Positions 1 to 13,378 are shown, counted from the stretch's first letter. The stretch is DNA of 64,000 nt from Acutalibacteraceae bacterium (GCA_045595725.1 JAZOAY010000007.1:595-64594), one strand, 5' to 3'. Numbers and translations are program-made. The notes: generated by a model from the letters alone, not told the origin.

Positions 1-451
1 AGTTATAATAAATATCGTATATATTTTCATTATCTGTATTTTGGTGAACAAAAACTGTGTCAACATTATATAATATTTTATGTCTGTTTCCCCAATAAGT
101 GTAGGTTATAACATTTACAAGAGTAAAAACAATTGCTAATATTGTAAGTATGGATAATGCCGTTTTTACTCGCGCTTCTTTTGCTTTTTGTAATGCCTCG
201 ATCACTATTTTTTCTGATTGTGAACCCACATTTGTGTTTCCTGAATATTCTCCGTCAAGTAATTCAATTACAGAAACATCTAATGTTCTTGCAAGTAAAG
301 TAAGCGATGAAATATCAGGGGCACCATTACCTGTTTCCCATTTGGAGACAGCTTTATCAGTAACGTTAAGTTTTTCTGCAAGTTGTTTTTGAGTTAGGTT
401 CATTTCTTTTCTTCGTTGCGAAATGAACTTGCCTGTCTTTCTGTTGTCCAT
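1..451 (-). CDS. XRE-family helix-turn-helix regulator with hydrophobic C-terminal segment (3' end runs off the window)
   Basis: Reverse-strand ATG at 449-451 reads MDNRKTGKFISQRRKEMNLTQKQLAEKLNVTDKAVSKWETG..., a classic HTH_3 motif. The N-terminus is paralogous to 12488..13378. It is absent from the ORF track because it is open at the window edge. The listed + ORF 150..392 is its antisense shadow. Confidence 0.8.
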   Translation of the reverse strand, partial: MDNRKTGKFISQRRKEMNLTQKQLAEKLNVTDKAVSKWETGNGAPDISSLTLLARTLDVSVIELLDGEYSGNTNVGSQSEKIVIEALQKAKEARVKTALSILTILAIVFTLVNVITYTYWGNRHKILYNVDTVFVHQNTDNENIYDIYYN

Positions 452-698: not shown

Positions 699-1679
699 AT
701 GATAGAATTTTATCAAGAATATATTGGAGGATGTGAAATTAAAATTCTTGATAACAGCGATAAACATTTATTGCCGATTTTACCTGCAATTATTTTTACG
801 AAATTAAATAAGAAATCAGAAAAAATCAAATTTATTGGCGGTGGCAGTTTTGGCAGAGTTTATAAGGTTGTGCTTTCTGATAGTGAAATTATCGCTGTAA
901 AAGCTTACAGAATACAAGGTTCTCAATATAAAGAAGCAGAGCAATTGAAACTTTTGTCCGAAAATACAAGCGTGAAAATGCCAAAGGTACTTTTTACTTA
1001 TCATGATGATGAAACAGCAATTTTAGCTATGACCTTTGTTGAAGGGCAGAATGTGTTAAATCCGATATTTTTACTGAAAAGTAAGAGTCAAAAACAAAAA
1101 TTTGCTGATGATGTTGTTTCGGGTATGCTTGAATGGCACAGAGTTACAAACGATAAATTTGGATTTTTGTCAAAACCTGCGTATAACAGTTGGTACGATT
1201 TTTATAAAGCAGAAATGCAGGAGCCTTGGCTTAAAGGTCTTGAAAAAATGTCTGATAATGGTAAGTTCAGCCGTAAAAATCTCAATTTTCTCAAAGAAGC
1301 ATCTGAAATTTTTGATTGTGTTTGTCCAAAGGATGCAACACCTGTGCTTATTCACGGTGACCTTAATATAATGAACATAATGGCTGACACCAAAACAATG
1401 CAAGTTAATGGGTTTATTGACCCCTGCGGTACGATGTGGGCAGACAGAGAATATGATTTGTTTCAGCTTCGGAATATGTGGGGTGATGCATATGGTCTGT
1501 ATGAAACATATAAGAAGAAGGTTGCACTCAGTGATTTTGTTGATTTCAGAGTTGCATATTATGGTGCAATGAACGAGGCACATTGCCGTCTTGGCGGCGG
1601 TCTTATTATGCCGTTATGGGAAATTTTATGTAATAATCACTTGGATAAAGAGATAAAAAAGATAAAAGAAAAGATGTGA
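699..1679 (+). CDS. APH / fructosamine-kinase-like phosphotransferase family protein
   Basis: GGGSFGRVYK glycine loop, catalytic LIHGDLNIMN motif and IDP...DREYDL motif, typical of the aminoglycoside/fructosamine kinase fold. Confidence 0.7.
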   Translation: MIEFYQEYIGGCEIKILDNSDKHLLPILPAIIFTKLNKKSEKIKFIGGGSFGRVYKVVLSDSEIIAVKAYRIQGSQYKEAEQLKLLSENTSVKMPKVLFTYHDDETAILAMTFVEGQNVLNPIFLLKSKSQKQKFADDVVSGMLEWHRVTNDKFGFLSKPAYNSWYDFYKAEMQEPWLKGLEKMSDNGKFSRKNLNFLKEASEIFDCVCPKDATPVLIHGDLNIMNIMADTKTMQVNGFIDPCGTMWADREYDLFQLRNMWGDAYGLYETYKKKVALSDFVDFRVAYYGAMNEAHCRLGGGLIMPLWEILCNNHLDKEIKKIKEKM

Positions 1680-1683
1680 TTTA

Positions 1684-2415
1684 ATGAACATAGGAGAACT
1701 TGTAACCGTTAAGACGATTGAGAATAAAAACACTCCTGATGAAAAGCATACACCGTATAGTGCTGAAATACGTTTGCTTTCATGTGTTCAGCAAGGTGAT
1801 ATTGATTCACTGATAGCACAGCTTGAAAATATTGATTCTATTATTGTTATGGGAAGAATGTCTGATGATGATTTAATGCAGCATAAATATATGGCTGTAA
1901 GCACAATTACTCTTGCCACCCGATATGCTATCCAGGGTGGACTTAACGAAACTAAAGCCTATGAATTTTCAGACAGAGTAATAAAAATAATTGATAAGCT
2001 TACTGATAAAAATGAAATATTTATGTGCTTAGGTGTTGAAATTGTAAACCTTACTCAGGATGTAAAAAAGAATAAAAAACAACCTGAATTTTCACCGCAT
2101 ATAAGAAACTGCATGAAATATATAAATGAAAATCTTTCTCAGAAAATTGCTGTTTCTGATGTTGCAAAAAATTGTGGCATTTCAGCAGATTATTTATCAC
2201 AGATATTCAAGAAAGAAATAGGCGAAAACCTGAGTTCTTATATTGTAAGACAAAAACTGGAAAAGGCAAAAACAATGCTTCTTAACGGGCTTTCATCAAA
2301 AGATATATGTGTCGAGATAGGGTTTTCTTCACAGGCATATTTTGTAACAGTTTTTAAAAGATTTTATAAGATGACGCCATCTGAATATATCAAAATCACA
2401 AGAAGTAATTATTAA
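1684..2415 (+). CDS. AraC-family transcriptional regulator
   Basis: C-terminal dual HTH (VSDVAKNCGISADYLSQIFKKEIGENLSSYIVRQKLEKAKTMLL...IGFSSQAYFVTVFKRFYKMTPSEY). Starts 4 nt after the kinase stop. Confidence 0.85.
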   Translation: MNIGELVTVKTIENKNTPDEKHTPYSAEIRLLSCVQQGDIDSLIAQLENIDSIIVMGRMSDDDLMQHKYMAVSTITLATRYAIQGGLNETKAYEFSDRVIKIIDKLTDKNEIFMCLGVEIVNLTQDVKKNKKQPEFSPHIRNCMKYINENLSQKIAVSDVAKNCGISADYLSQIFKKEIGENLSSYIVRQKLEKAKTMLLNGLSSKDICVEIGFSSQAYFVTVFKRFYKMTPSEYIKITRSNY

Positions 2416-2581
2416 AAGCTCCAGTAGTTTCTTCTATGAGAATACCAATATTTTATTAAACATGTTATTTTGTATCTGGTGATGGCAATTAATGAAAATG
2501 TGTTTATGAATTTGTCTATTGATTTTAGAGTGGAAATAATGTAAACTTGTGAAATGACGATATTAATTTGGAGTAATTATT

Positions 2582-3397
2582 ATGGCAAAATCAAAGAAAT
2601 CAGTTAAACATAAAAAGAAATATCCACCTTTATCAAAGCAGGATAAGTTTATATATAGTTGTTTTGAAGTAATAGGTGCGATTATCGTTATAACTTCAAT
2701 GGATATATATAAAATTTTTGCACATCTAATTACTTTCAAAAAGACAGAAATATTAGCATATGAAGAAAGATGGTCAGTGTTATTACTTTTTCCTGTTATT
2801 TTTTTCTTGTTGTTTTTGGTATTGAAACCAACTTGGAAAAAGCTTCCGATTATAGGAAATAAAAAAATTGATTATTTTAACAGGACTAAATTTAAAGCTG
2901 TTTTCCCGGTGTTTGACGACAGATATAAAAATAATGAAGAATATTTGAAAAACAGAAAAATTTTCTTTAAAAAATCAGTTATATATTTTTGTGTTTTTAT
3001 AAGTCTTTTGTCAATTGGTTGTATGGGGTGTATCGGTCGTCACGAATTCAATGAAAACGGAATTGTGACATATAGTATTCTGAATAATAAAACAGCAGAA
3101 TATTCCTATGACGAAGTTGAAAGCTTTCGTGTCAGTGCTGATAGGAATAGTGTAAGAAGTACGAGAGGCATACATTACTATACTTATGGTATGAGCTTGA
3201 CTATGAATATGAATAACGGTGAAACTTTTACGGCAAGTTATGACAGAGCAAGGGATGTATATGCACTCGAAAAAATAAAAAATCAGCTCAAGGATAAAAA
3301 GAAAACTGTAGATACATATTATCTTCAGGACTTTATAGACAGATACGATTTCACAGACGACGAGTTGCAAGTTATTGACAAAATTTTTGAAGAATAA
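2582..3397 (+). CDS. hypothetical membrane protein
   Basis: Long ORF with several hydrophobic segments. No recognisable family motif. Confidence 0.5.
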   Translation: MAKSKKSVKHKKKYPPLSKQDKFIYSCFEVIGAIIVITSMDIYKIFAHLITFKKTEILAYEERWSVLLLFPVIFFLLFLVLKPTWKKLPIIGNKKIDYFNRTKFKAVFPVFDDRYKNNEEYLKNRKIFFKKSVIYFCVFISLLSIGCMGCIGRHEFNENGIVTYSILNNKTAEYSYDEVESFRVSADRNSVRSTRGIHYYTYGMSLTMNMNNGETFTASYDRARDVYALEKIKNQLKDKKKTVDTYYLQDFIDRYDFTDDELQVIDKIFEE

Positions 3398-3441
3398 TCA
3401 GGCTCTGTTTTATGGTGAAACGTTCGGGTTTTATACTACTC

Positions 3442-3469
3442 TTGCATTTTTTCATATTTATGTTATAAT
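3442..3469 (+). promoter_or_regulatory. sigma-A-type promoter (TTGCAT, 16 nt spacer, extended TGtTATAAT)
   Basis: TTGCAT at 3442-3447 and TG-n-TATAAT at 3461-3469. The predicted start is about 10 nt before the leader RBS. Confidence 0.55.
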
Positions 3470-3499
3470 CATTTAAAATTCTATTTGGAGGAAAATGGT

Positions 3500-3535
3500 A
3501 TGTTCTTTATCTTTAGACGACGCAGACGAAGATAG
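3500..3535 (+). CDS. candidate leader peptide MFFIFRRRRRR (11 codons, six consecutive Arg)
   Basis: GGAGG at 3487-3491 lies 8 nt before the ATG at 3500. Reading: atg ttc ttt atc ttt aga cga cgc aga cga aga tag. It sits between a promoter and a terminator upstream of the methyltransferase. Confidence 0.45.
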   Translation: MFFIFRRRRRR

Positions 3536-3613
3536 CTTGTATCTTGTATTGGGTACAGGCTTGAAAGCTATGTGCCTGATAGAGTGATAAAGAAAAGTTT
3601 ACCTTTTATATTA

Positions 3614-3649
3614 CTGTTAATGGCACAAAGCTATTAACAGTATTTTTTA
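3614..3649 (+). terminator. intrinsic terminator / attenuator hairpin upstream of the methyltransferase
   Basis: CTGTTAAT (3614-3621) pairs with ATTAACAG (3633-3640), followed by TATTTTTTAT. It lies inside the 5' leader, 19 nt before the ATG at 3668. Confidence 0.6.
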
Positions 3650-3667
3650 TTTGGAGGAATAACAAAA

Positions 3668-4414
3668 ATGAACAGTTTTAAATATAAGACATTATTCAAT
3701 GTAATTTCAGAGCAAACAGATTTACCTGATAATGCGGTGATTGCGGATTTAGGTTGTAAAGATGCAACATTTCTTTTGGCTTTTCAAAAAGCCTTTCCAA
3801 ACAAAATCAAGTCAGCTGTGGGCGTAGATATAACTGACAAATGGTTTAACAATGTTAAATATAAAAAGCCGATTAAGCTTAAGGTTATGAATTGCTCAAA
3901 GAAACTTAACTTTGCTGATAATACGTTTGATTTTATCTTTACAAAAGATATGTTTGAATGTGTGCTGGATAAAGACTTTTTAGTGAGTGAAATTTATAGA
4001 ATTTTAAAACCCGGCGGAGTTGTTATTTGTGTAAACTGTGATTGGGACAGTATTATATATAACGGTGAAAATAAAGAGCTTATTTCAAATGTGATTCACT
4101 CTTATGCCGTAACAAAACAACCATGGATGGAAGACCTTGACAGTTGGATAGGCAGAAGAATGTACGGATTTTTTAACAAAAGCAATTTATTTAAAAATAC
4201 AGTAGGTGTTCACAATGTTGTTGAAACCGAATATAAAGAGGGCACTTTTGGTTATGATTTAAGCAAAGATATTGCGTGGCTTTATAAGGAAGAAACAGGA
4301 AAATTAAATAAAGAAGAGTATGATGAGTTTATTGAGAATTTGAAAAAAGCACATCAAGAAGGAACTTATATTTTTTCAAAACCTTATTACATTTATAAAG
4401 GTATTAAATTGTAA
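3668..4414 (+). CDS. class I SAM-dependent methyltransferase
   Basis: Motif I VIADLGCKD and post-I/II ILKPGGVVI, Methyltransf_11-like. GGAGG RBS at 3653-3657. Confidence 0.8.
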   Translation: MNSFKYKTLFNVISEQTDLPDNAVIADLGCKDATFLLAFQKAFPNKIKSAVGVDITDKWFNNVKYKKPIKLKVMNCSKKLNFADNTFDFIFTKDMFECVLDKDFLVSEIYRILKPGGVVICVNCDWDSIIYNGENKELISNVIHSYAVTKQPWMEDLDSWIGRRMYGFFNKSNLFKNTVGVHNVVETEYKEGTFGYDLSKDIAWLYKEETGKLNKEEYDEFIENLKKAHQEGTYIFSKPYYIYKGIKL

Positions 4415-4680
4415 TTTTTATCGAATAAACATTTCTGAGTCCGTAGCAATATTGGGTTAAATGTTTTACAATATAGCTATAGCAACTCAGATTCGGACGG
4501 AGGGTTATTTTGTGAAACTTTTGCTTTTAGCCGACATGGAAACTGATTTTGGTATAGTATTGGAAAGTTGCGATGCTGAGATTAGTCGTATATCTTTAAA
4601 AGATGCATTTGATATTTGTTTTGATGTTTACGATGCTTAGGTTGTTTCTGGCGAAATAAAGTACTTTTTTCGGAAGTGTT

Positions 4681-5991
4681 TTATTTTTTGTTCAAATCGT
4701 CTGTTGCGGGATTGTCTATGAGTTCGCCGCTTTCGGTAAATCTTGAACCGTGGCAGGGGCAATCCCATGAATGTTCTTCTTTGTTGTATCTGAGGGCACA
4801 ACCAAGATGGGGACATCTGGGAACAGTAGGGGTAATAATTCCCGTAACAGAATGAAATATATTTGAAAAAAGTTGCGCATTGAGAATTGAGCGTGTGGAA
4901 GAAAAAACATCAGCGCATGGATTGTGTACACCTGTTATCATATCACTTAAAATTTCAGATGCAACCATCGAAGATGTCATTCCCCATTTGTTGAAACCTG
5001 TAGCCACATAGATGTCTTCGGAAAGTTTTGAATATTTACCGATATAGGGAATGGAGTCGAGGCTTATGCAGTCCTGTGTGGCAAAATGATAACCGATTTC
5101 AGCCTGAGGGAAATTATCTGTACAGAATTTTTCGAGAACTTTATATCCGCCACCATTTTTTCCTGTTCTGTGGTCACCGCCACCTATGAGAAGATAATTT
5201 TTATAATTTCTGAATGAAAATCCGTTTTCTTTATCCTCAAGATACATTCCGTTAACATCAGGTGCATTTTTTGCAGCAACAACGTAGGAGCGATGCTGAT
5301 ATAATTTCAGGGGATATAAACCATGTTTGTTTATTATGGGAAAATGTGTTGCAATAATTATTTTTTCTGCAGTTATACTTCCGTTTTCACAAAGTACTTT
5401 TTTCGGCATGAATTCAGTAACTTTTGAGTTTTCATAAATTCTTAGACCTTTTGCTGCGGAAAACATAAATTTAAGTGGATGAAATTGAGCCTGTCTGCTG
5501 ATTTTTACTGCTCCGGAGCATTCTACCGGTAACGGAATATCAGAAAGAAACTCAGCGTCAACACCCAATTTTTCATAGGCTCTTATTTCGTTTTCAATTT
5601 TTTTACGATCTGTTCCCGAATAAATATATGCATCTTTTTCTTCAAAATCACAAGAAAAAGTGTCACTCATTTCACGAAATTTTTCAAGTGCATTTTTGTT
5701 TGCTGTCAGATATTGATGCGCTTTTTCTGTACCAAAATTTTTTATAAGTTTATCGTAAAGAATACCATGCTGAAAAGTTATTTTTGCGGTGGTGTTTTTA
5801 GTTACACCTGAACCGATAGTTTTTGCTTCAAGCAGAATACAGTCCACACCTCTGTCGGTCAGTTCTTTAATACACAAAATTCCTGCAAGACCGCCGCCTA
5901 CAATTACCACATCTGTTTTTAAATCACCTTGAAGCATGGGAAAACTTACTCTTTCAGAAGTATCACTCCATAAAGAATTCAAAAAAATCAC
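4681..5991 (-). CDS. FAD-dependent oxidoreductase fused to a C-terminal Rieske [2Fe-2S] domain (YhfW-like architecture)
   Basis: N-terminal VVIVGGGLAG dinucleotide fold. C-terminal CPHLGC...CPCHGSRF Rieske motif. The true start is probably the TTG at 5982, downstream of a GAGAGGTG RBS. Confidence 0.85.
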   Translation of the reverse strand: MIFLNSLWSDTSERVSFPMLQGDLKTDVVIVGGGLAGILCIKELTDRGVDCILLEAKTIGSGVTKNTTAKITFQHGILYDKLIKNFGTEKAHQYLTANKNALEKFREMSDTFSCDFEEKDAYIYSGTDRKKIENEIRAYEKLGVDAEFLSDIPLPVECSGAVKISRQAQFHPLKFMFSAAKGLRIYENSKVTEFMPKKVLCENGSITAEKIIIATHFPIINKHGLYPLKLYQHRSYVVAAKNAPDVNGMYLEDKENGFSFRNYKNYLLIGGGDHRTGKNGGGYKVLEKFCTDNFPQAEIGYHFATQDCISLDSIPYIGKYSKLSEDIYVATGFNKWGMTSSMVASEILSDMITGVHNPCADVFSSTRSILNAQLFSNIFHSVTGIITPTVPRCPHLGCALRYNKEEHSWDCPCHGSRFTESGELIDNPATDDLNKK

Positions 5992-12487: not shown

Positions 12488-13378
12488 ATGGATACTGTTA
12501 TTACGGGCAGATTTATTTCCGAATTGAGAAAAGAAAAAGGTTTGACCCAGGCAGAACTGGCTGAAAGGCTTAACGTAACAGACAAGGCCGTTTCAAAATG
12601 GGAGACGGGCAGAAGTGCACCTGATGTATCGTTGCTTATTCCTTTGTCAGAAATTCTTGAGGTTACCGTTACAGAGATTTTAAAGGGTGAAAGAATCAGT
12701 ACAGAAGTTTTGTCCGAGGCAAGTAATGAGGTGATTGTAAAAGCAATTAAGGAGAAAAAACATATCAGTAAACGGTTTTTGTTGATTGCAGGAATTATAA
12801 TATTTGTGTTAATCTGTCTTAAGGCACTTTCATATCCTGCGAGTCACTTTTTAAATTCTGCCACTCCAAATGACGACGTTGATATTTCGGAAAAAACAGA
12901 ACAATATATAGATAATTATTATGAAGAAGATCATAAAAACATGCAAAAACCGGGAGAATATATAGAAACTTACGGCGAAAATGGAGAAAATTTAAAAATT
13001 ATAAAAAGGGTAGAAAAAGATGATCTTTATTTCTTCCTTATGCAAAGCGAAACGAGAAAAGTTATGGCAATTTTTGAAAAAGATAAAATCTTCGAGGACA
13101 GAATTTATCTTTCGAATTTTTATGATTTTACCGAACACCCAGATTTCATTTTTCACTGGATTGGTGATACGAATCCTCGGAGTAAAGAAGAAGGCAAAAC
13201 ATTTGATGTCCATTACGGGTACGACATAAAGGATAAGGAATATGATTATACTTACCACGGAGTTAGATATACAAACGAAATAGAAGAAGACGGAATTCTT
13301 TTTGAAGTGTTTGTTGATGACAAAATAAAGGGTGAGGATACACATGCACGACTTGTTCATTACAAATCTTTAGACTGA
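12488..13378 (+). CDS. XRE-family HTH regulator with a central TM segment and an extracytoplasmic C-terminal domain
   Basis: MDTVITGRFISELRKEKGLTQAELAERLNVTDKAVSKWETG. TM segment LLIAGIIIFVLICL. AAGGAGG RBS 7 nt upstream. Confidence 0.8.
   Translation: MDTVITGRFISELRKEKGLTQAELAERLNVTDKAVSKWETGRSAPDVSLLIPLSEILEVTVTEILKGERISTEVLSEASNEVIVKAIKEKKHISKRFLLIAGIIIFVLICLKALSYPASHFLNSATPNDDVDISEKTEQYIDNYYEEDHKNMQKPGEYIETYGENGENLKIIKRVEKDDLYFFLMQSETRKVMAIFEKDKIFEDRIYLSNFYDFTEHPDFIFHWIGDTNPRSKEEGKTFDVHYGYDIKDKEYDYTYHGVRYTNEIEEDGILFEVFVDDKIKGEDTHARLVHYKSLD

Follow-up and report, generated by a model that had tools for sequence, protein, structure and literature searches.

The segment 3442-3667 of a 64,000-nucleotide (nt) stretch of DNA from an Acutalibacteraceae bacterium (GCA_045595725.1, JAZOAY010000007.1:595-64594; this whole stretch is called the window) is best read, from its sequence and the sequences of its relatives, as a transcription attenuator of the leader-peptide (ribosome-mediated) type, which would signal arginyl-tRNA supply (probability approximately 0.72) to a downstream methyltransferase (MT) gene. 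It contains the structural features of leader-peptide attenuators: a short open reading frame (ORF) with its own Shine-Dalgarno sequence, a cluster of codons for a single amino acid, an intrinsic terminator, and an antiterminator together with an anti-antiterminator that overlaps the ORF. These elements show conservation and covariation and exclude one another, and the same Arg scaffold is located in front of argS elsewhere. Both the folding of the leader region (3476-3667, z = -5.0 relative to shuffled sequences, as a proposed folding check returned) and its conservation in 87/87 loci place the unit far beyond chance.

Elements were called by direct reading of the sequence and by terminator and promoter-consensus scans of positions 2400-4800; coordinates are collected in Table 1. 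The promoter, the Shine-Dalgarno sequence, the 11-codon leader MFFIFRRRRRR and its six Arg codons were all found where the preliminary description had placed them. The promoter was missing from the output of the consensus scan because its -35 hexamer fits the consensus at only 3/6 positions; a strong sigma-A-type promoter was present in every orthologue 20-30 nt 5′ of the leader Shine-Dalgarno sequence, and sequences 5′ of the promoter were unrelated among orthologues. The terminator, likewise described earlier, is present and is the sole terminator-like site within 2400-4800; its extent was corrected slightly, from 3614-3649 to a stem spanning 3612-3642. The end of its T-run is separated from the MT start codon at 3668 by 15 nt. 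A 30-codon frame beginning at ATG 3496 was considered as an alternative leader and rejected for lack of a conserved start codon, because locus L002 has no ATG there. A cmscan of 3300-3800 against Rfam with E values up to 10 gave only chance-level matches to unrelated families and no T-box match, a NusG pause motif (TTNTTT) sought by eye 5′ of the terminator was not convincingly present, and a search of the host genome for further copies using nhmmer and a peptide-pattern scan returned this single copy only.

The suggestion that MT homologues might keep a short Arg-rich leader ORF was borne out, as nhmmer searches located the whole leader unit 5′ of MT in 87/87 orthologous loci having upstream DNA. 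The unit also occurs in further genera and in a different family. The leader peptide consensus is MFFI[ST][IV]RRRRR followed by the stop codon. Among 84 loci there were 31 distinct leader ORF sequences, and the changes were mostly synonymous or conservative (TTC/TTT, ATC/ATT, CGC/CGT, CGA/AGA/AGG, and I/V/M at codon 6). The number of Arg codons is six in the window, five in most relatives and 3-5 across all relatives. Leaders from distant genera (MTFFIRRRRR, MTLSIIRCRRR, MTFFIRHRRR, MVFIIIRRRR, MFFIIIRRCR, MTFIIIRRRR and MAVRSLFIRRR, each followed by stop) keep the pattern of hydrophobic residues, then I-R-x-R and onward to the stop. The distribution of MT is patchy (9/61 relatives and 15/401 genomes sampled from the family), and the flanks of the unit are highly variable, with 160 nearest-neighbour proteins falling into 107 clusters; because the neighbouring genes vary so much, the promoter-leader-MT cassette behaves as a self-contained accessory unit.

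Two kinds of irregular copy were recorded separately. In metagenome contigs L141 and L154, an MT ORF of only 137-144 codons lies behind an intact attenuator and may reflect truncation, a frameshift or faulty assembly. In L097 (G273:C36, approximately 300-500 of the locus), from a high-GC genus, an MT orthologue of 55% identity follows a P2-like hairpin and an ORF ending in HTRRKR and stop; this locus has no clear Shine-Dalgarno sequence or start codon and a weak T-run, and its attenuator may have degenerated.

To define the RNA structure, a consensus was computed with RNAalifold on 79 sequences, and pairs were counted on a MAFFT alignment of 75 sequences (A5) and on a wider, model-fitted alignment that adds argS-linked copies and copies linked to a GNAT acetyltransferase gene. 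RNAalifold returned a long imperfect helix (P1), a hairpin (P2) and the terminator, and covariation supports an arrangement of four elements, P1, P2, the antiterminator and the terminator, as predicted mutually exclusive folds. For the full-length leader the minimum free energy (MFE) fold consists of P1, the OFF state, plus the terminator. On A5, 96% of cells in the OFF structure were paired versus 32-44% with slid partners, and 14 pairs had changed on both sides; on the wider alignment 30/43 pairs showed double changes, a count that leans towards the model structure because that alignment was fitted to it. Compensatory double changes were found on the wider alignment in 9/9 pairs of P1a, across MT-, GNAT- and argS-type copies, and compensatory changes in 13/13 pairs of the terminator stem, which had 98.8% of cells paired on A5. 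The sequence of P2, GCUUGUAUC...GGUACAGGC, recurs in attenuators linked to aspS and metN and is thus kept across Arg, Asp and Met classes; together with region 2 (GCTATGTGCC, 3567-3576) it is conserved in sequence across these three amino-acid classes, including two fixed U.G wobbles.

The core of the antiterminator pairs region 2 with the terminator apex (GGCACAAAGC, 3622-3631) and was 98% paired; its one variable position was AU in 35 sequences, GU in 19, GC in 11 and UA in 4. This pairing was inferred because nucleotides of the terminator loop covary with a site 55 nt upstream, which is hard to explain otherwise. When the RNA was ended at 3632, the core extended to a hairpin (3566-3597/3603-3632) that takes up six bases at the start of the terminator 5′ arm, and the MFE fold contained the antiterminator (9/10 core pairs) whether or not the leader was masked. 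The inner helices of the antiterminator were approximately 90% paired in relatives. Computed stabilities were -23.6 kcal/mol for the antiterminator hairpin, -16.7 kcal/mol for the terminator and about -10.8 kcal/mol for P1. Pairing of the P2 3′ arm with GCCTG at 3574-3578 was tried as an alternative antiterminator and rejected, as the variants CCCGA, CCTTA and CCTAA break it without compensation. The preliminary description had also proposed that ribosome position chooses between alternative folds by pairing of the heptamer ATAGCTT (3532-3538) with AAGCTAT at 3565-3571 or 3628-3634. All three heptamers are present, and an attenuator with alternative folds was recovered; the heptamer pairing itself had to be given up as the switch, since it was not among the conserved helices, and the complementarity amounts to 5 bp or fewer in relatives because region 2 there reads TGCTRTGTGCC.

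From these elements a course of events can be proposed, in which stalling caused by uncharged tRNA-Arg, the sequence of folding events and a pausing role for P2 are inferred. Transcription would start at the promoter, and the leader would be translated as RNA polymerase advances. With ample Arg-tRNA the ribosome would get to the TAG and depart, and leader codons 2-9 would pair with 3571-3594 to form P1, with P2 at its tip and the antiterminator 5′ strand locked up. P1 would be expected to form first after the ribosome leaves, because both of its strands are available when the polymerase is at approximately 3600, and the terminator 5′ arm would stay free; the terminator stem with its T-run would then form and the transcript would stop short of MT. 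A ribosome dwelling on the Arg codons would mask the P1 5′ strand, the freed switch segment (3566-3597) would pair with 3603-3632 using the terminator 5′ arm and loop, and the polymerase would read into MT. The freed segment may nucleate the antiterminator as soon as 3603-3617 has been made, ahead of the terminator 3′ arm. It is a reasonable guess that P2, as in trp, makes the polymerase pause and so keeps it in step with the ribosome.

The identity of the signal is indicated by copies of the scaffold in front of other genes. A DNA search of the family detected the attenuator in G259, a genome of another genus in which MT had no match; the leader there is MFFIIMRRMR and stop, and the cargo is a RimJ/RimL-type GNAT acetyltransferase of 174 amino acids (PF13302, 1.2e-32). 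Metagenomes were scanned with a pattern comprising P2 and region 2 only, and the 75 matches were scored with a covariance model built from 40 copies. Arg-type attenuators were present at 47 loci (the 49 covariance-model rows include two Met-type copies), and reading their cargo by hand gave MT at ~17, GNAT at 2 and argS at ~22, the rest ending before a readable downstream gene. The argS products are ~572 amino acids long and match arginine-tRNA ligase (TIGR00456) at 383-403 bits (cut-off 262); their leaders read M..SLSIRRRR and stop, with the same codons ATT CGA CGC AGA CGA before the stop codon. In genome G671, which is 99% complete and belongs to another family of the order, the sole argS carries the attenuator, and in G529, from a third family, the attenuator precedes MT. 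The argS gene of the host genome is without an attenuator.

Two further classes use other codons. Leaders ending in NRDDDR and stop (GAC GAC GAT AGA TAG), followed by a terminator, precede a gene for aspartate-tRNA(Asn) ligase (NF003483, 541 bits) and are candidate Asp/Asn-sensing attenuators. Leaders ending in VMMYMH (MKGNIVVRETVMMYMH, then stop) or in MMMYMC and stop precede a gene for a MetN-like methionine ABC transporter ATPase and are candidate Met-sensing attenuators. In MFE folds of examples from all three classes, the regulatory codons pair with region 2, P2 lies at the tip and the terminator comes after. A covariance-model search of 150 family genomes and a pattern search of 400 class genomes gave almost nothing new, and for this reason the scaffold is considered lineage-restricted.

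In three classes the amino acid encoded in the leader fits what the downstream gene does, which indicates amino-acid-specific attenuation rather than drug sensing, and Arg-tRNA supply is the most likely signal. Two mechanisms had been put forward earlier. Arg-tRNA-sensing attenuation is now the best explanation, given the sister copies before argS and the Asp- and Met-codon versions before aspS and metN, while a nascent-peptide or polycation switch of the kind that controls inducible rRNA methyltransferases is disfavoured by the RlmA score of MT (19 bits), by its small-molecule-methyltransferase neighbours and by the amino-acid-matched leaders and genes.

Several points weigh against arginyl-tRNA sensing. 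Besides the lean of the wider alignment, thermodynamics alone leave the ribosome-free fold undecided, because the antiterminator is the MFE fold of the RNA truncated at 3632 even when the leader is unmasked. MT has no known link to arginine, and its patchy accessory distribution in highly variable neighbourhoods would be more usual for a gene of resistance or detoxification. The choice of rare CGA and CGC codons could mirror RNA pairing instead of tRNA sensing. Finally, the peptide resembles the Bacillus subtilis tlrB (yxjB) leader MIIQFIRYR, whose RYR is the site of tylosin-induced ribosome stalling (Yakhnin et al. 2019, PMC6851288): positions 6-9 of the Arg leader are I-R-R-R, nearly all leader variants retain R-x-R, and RCR, RHR, RRCR, RRMR and RRKR keep the +x+ pattern.

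This likeness to the tlrB leader and the retention of R-x-R in most variants were the reasons why a drug-sensing switch was favoured first. In such a drug-inducible attenuator, comparable to those of tlrB, erm and msr, a ribosome with bound drug would arrest on the C-terminal R-x-R (+x+) motif of the growing leader peptide, open the antiterminator and thereby induce a resistance or detoxifying enzyme, which would also suit MT and GNAT as patchy accessory genes in variable contexts. The specific form of the proposal, a tlrB-type macrolide sensor, was weakened by the fold of MT and by a separate, leaderless RlmA-like gene in the genome. MT scored 19.4 bits on the RlmA model NF008300 (cut-off 303), and neither a Zn ribbon nor an RrnaAD domain was found in the protein with Pfam and NCBIfam profiles. 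Its AlphaFold model (predicted local distance difference test score 91.8) had small-molecule methyltransferases as Foldseek neighbours (3mgg, LahSB, JHAMT, PEAMT and OxaG), and on these grounds MT is predicted to have a small-molecule-methyltransferase fold and not to be an rRNA methyltransferase. The proposal was overturned by the loci described above, in which the same scaffold and leader precede argS, which in the 99%-complete genome G671 is the only copy, and Asp- and Met-codon leaders precede aspS and metN; in addition, the L008 leader (IRFMRR and stop) lacks the R-x-R motif. Drug sensing is therefore regarded as unlikely, and the peptide likeness to tlrB is probably convergent.

The leaderless RlmA-like gene, which resembles 23S rRNA methyltransferases of the RlmA family (227 bits), is located at G000 contig C124:12741-13535 on the minus strand (locus L101). 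It has a Zn-ribbon N-terminus (MTYFLCPVCGEKL), a plain promoter and no leader peptide, and one TAA lies within the match.

Also improbable, and to a similar degree, is a general sensor of translation speed without arginine specificity, in which slower elongation or termination on the ORF from whatever cause, be it inosine:adenosine (I:A) wobble at rare CGA codons, the polybasic chain or release at the stop codon, would lead to readthrough. The design needs only a ribosome dwelling on codons 2-9, and rare CGA is invariably at or adjoining the last sense codon. Arg codon usage in the genome is AGA 59%, CGT 24%, AGG 6.5%, CGC 5.9%, CGA 3.3% and CGG 1%, and the tRNA-Arg genes found have the anticodons ACG, CCG and UCU; the leader in the window uses CGA twice and CGC once. 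Against a general sensor stands the match of Arg with argS, Asp with aspS and Met with metN, which argues for specificity. The use of CGA-CGC also has another explanation, at least in part, because CGA-CGC-A pairs with the invariant UGUG.C.C of region 2 in the OFF fold. For an attenuator that senses arginyl-tRNA, slow I:A decoding of CGA may add sensitivity.

It is very improbable that the peptide from the short ORF has a function of its own, for instance as substrate or precursor for a LahSB-like MT, with the terminator only setting stoichiometry: MT does resemble the C-terminal methyltransferase LahSB of ribosomally synthesized and post-translationally modified peptides (RiPPs) weakly (3e-8 in sequence, Foldseek rank 3) and the leader peptide is conserved in sequence, but the same leader also precedes argS and a GNAT gene, the covarying antiterminator and the ORF-overlapping helix indicate regulation, and 11 residues without leader/core organisation would be an atypical RiPP precursor.

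Leader-peptide attenuation is textbook for Trp, His, Phe, Leu, Thr and Ile/Val in Proteobacteria. In Firmicutes, including Clostridia, T-boxes are the usual sensors of tRNA charging, and leader-peptide attenuation is considered rare. Like classical trpL, hisL, pheL, leuL, thrL and pheM, the unit has a short translated ORF containing codons for the sensed amino acid and four segments that form exclusive anti-antiterminator, antiterminator and terminator helices, with ribosome position selecting the fold; pheM-pheST, which has a cognate aminoacyl-tRNA synthetase as cargo, is matched by the argS and aspS sister loci. Unlike the classical cases, the amino acid is arginine, the host belongs to the Acutalibacteraceae (Oscillospirales, Clostridia), a conserved hairpin adjoins the stop codon, the terminator loop is drawn into the antiterminator, and an accessory MT takes the place of a biosynthetic or charging enzyme as cargo here. 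T-boxes before argS and other aminoacyl-tRNA synthetase genes in Firmicutes respond to the same signal, uncharged tRNA, with the same antitermination output, but they bind tRNA directly without translation, whereas here sensing would proceed through the translating ribosome and no T-box match was found.

Among Firmicutes systems, His-codon leader peptides were described in Bacilli before hisS paralogues or hisZ, and only His leaders were found (Naville and Gautheret 2010, PMC2965389). These are likewise regular Firmicutes leader peptides that replace a T-box before an aminoacyl-tRNA-synthetase-type gene; they differ in amino acid and have an unrelated RNA scaffold, whereas here one scaffold serves Arg, Asp and Met. 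The tlrB leader shares a length of 9-11 codons, a hydrophobic N-terminus, I-R-x-R at positions 6-9, one or more stop codons directly after, a Methyltransf_11-type enzyme gene preceded by an intrinsic terminator and, as proposed for the present unit, termination blocked by a stalled ribosome. It differs in that tylosin is sensed through the nascent peptide, the cargo is the 23S rRNA G748 methyltransferase RlmA(II), and a hairpin sequestering the Shine-Dalgarno sequence and a NusG-dependent pause are added (PMC6851288). In Salmonella, ribosome speed on consecutive Arg codons of the speF leader orf34 is reported to signal the arginine level and to alter downstream transcription (PMC6386406). That enterobacterial system reportedly acts through mRNA conformations and Rho-dependent events on an ornithine decarboxylase gene and is not known to have an intrinsic terminator/antiterminator scaffold of the present kind (PMC6386406). 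A literature search found no bacterial leader-peptide attenuator for arginine of this kind, no Arg-codon attenuator for argS and none like this scaffold, which, as its coverage was partial, is not proof of absence; literal leader peptide strings gave no match in the literature.

The unit departs from the classical attenuators in amino acid (arginine), in lineage (Clostridia), in having a scaffold open to reuse and in the cargo found here; the logic is that of classical attenuation. One RNA scaffold carrying Arg, Asp or Met codons before argS, aspS or metN in uncultured gut Clostridia would amount to a modular, ribosome-based alternative to the T-box, and would provide an annotation rule by which the final codons of the mini-ORF predict the sensed signal. 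Attachment of a low Arg-tRNA cue to two orphan enzymes, MT and GNAT, would make their function testable; a conditional function is suggested for both because their distribution is patchy and mobile-looking. The switch is compact (175 nt) and could be used as a reporter of arginine charging. A more speculative proposal, tentative and on balance doubtful, is a "tRNA-Arg charging" stimulon, in which argS would be joined by small-molecule-modifying enzymes (MT and GNAT) that neutralise a natural arginine antimetabolite or arginyl-tRNA synthetase inhibitor of herbivore and human guts and, separately, the shared hairpin and UGUGCC core would define a modular, undescribed attenuator family replacing T-boxes in some Clostridia. 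If this were true, resistance would be switched on through the starvation signal that a toxin elicits and not by the toxin.

Table 1. Coordinates of the attenuator and its cargo in the window, and of related loci (positions in the named locus for the last three rows)
Feature	Position	Strand	Details
Promoter	3442-3469	+	-35 TTGCAT 3442-3447; 16-nt spacer; extended -10 TGtTATAAT 3461-3469
Leader Shine-Dalgarno sequence	3487-3491	+	GGAGG, 8 nt to ATG; (A)GGAGG with 7-9 nt spacing kept in orthologues
Leader ORF	3500-3535	+	ATG 3500, TAG 3533-3535; 11 codons plus TAG, MFFIFRRRRRR and stop
P1 (anti-antiterminator) 5′ strand, predicted	3503-3524	+	Inside leader ORF, codons 2-9; partner 3571-3594; 92-93% of cells paired (A5)
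Arg codon run, putative regulatory codons	3515-3532	+	Six codons, AGA CGA CGC AGA CGA AGA
P2 hairpin, predicted	3534-3561	+	11 bp, 3534-3544/3551-3561; begins within the stop codon; 99.7% of cells paired (A5)
Switch segment, predicted	3566-3597	+	Part 3571-3594 is the P1 3′ strand when OFF; whole segment is the antiterminator 5′ strand when ON
Antiterminator 3′ strand, predicted	3603-3632	+	Overlaps terminator 5′ arm, loop and top of 3′ arm
Intrinsic terminator	3612-3652	+	13-bp stem 3612-3624/3630-3642; loop ACAAA; T-run TTTTTTATTT 3643-3652
MT Shine-Dalgarno sequence	3653-3657	+	GGAGG, direct reading
MT gene	3668-4414	+	248-amino-acid class I S-adenosylmethionine-dependent methyltransferase; Pfam Methyltransf_11, 6.7e-14
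GNAT-linked attenuator, L103 (G259:C10)	Attenuator 1977-2140; GNAT cargo 1440-1961	-	Also L138, L140
Asp-class contigs L107, L124, L128, L139, L142, L160, L163, L169	Cargo, e.g., L107:2171-3523	- (L107 cargo)	Non-discriminating aspartate-tRNA(Asn) ligase
Met-class contigs L123, L157	L123 ~712-836; L157 ~13055-13192	-	MetN-like cargo

As had been said of it, MT has no assigned substrate, and no NCBIfam model reaches its cut-off. Upstream in the window, at 699-2415 (+) and 2-451 (-), are an APH/fructosamine-kinase-like phosphotransferase gene (699-1679), a gene for an AraC-family regulator (1684-2415) and an XRE regulator gene. In L002 a homologue of the phosphotransferase is located 3′ of MT, and several loci have XRE homologues next to the unit, which suggests a variable accessory region. 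No terminator-like site was found after the MT stop codon in window positions 4415-4680. A short ORF of ~42 codons, beginning with GTG at ~4512 and with GGAGGG in front, follows MT and precedes a convergent oxidoreductase gene; a 59-amino-acid version of its product had no Pfam match.

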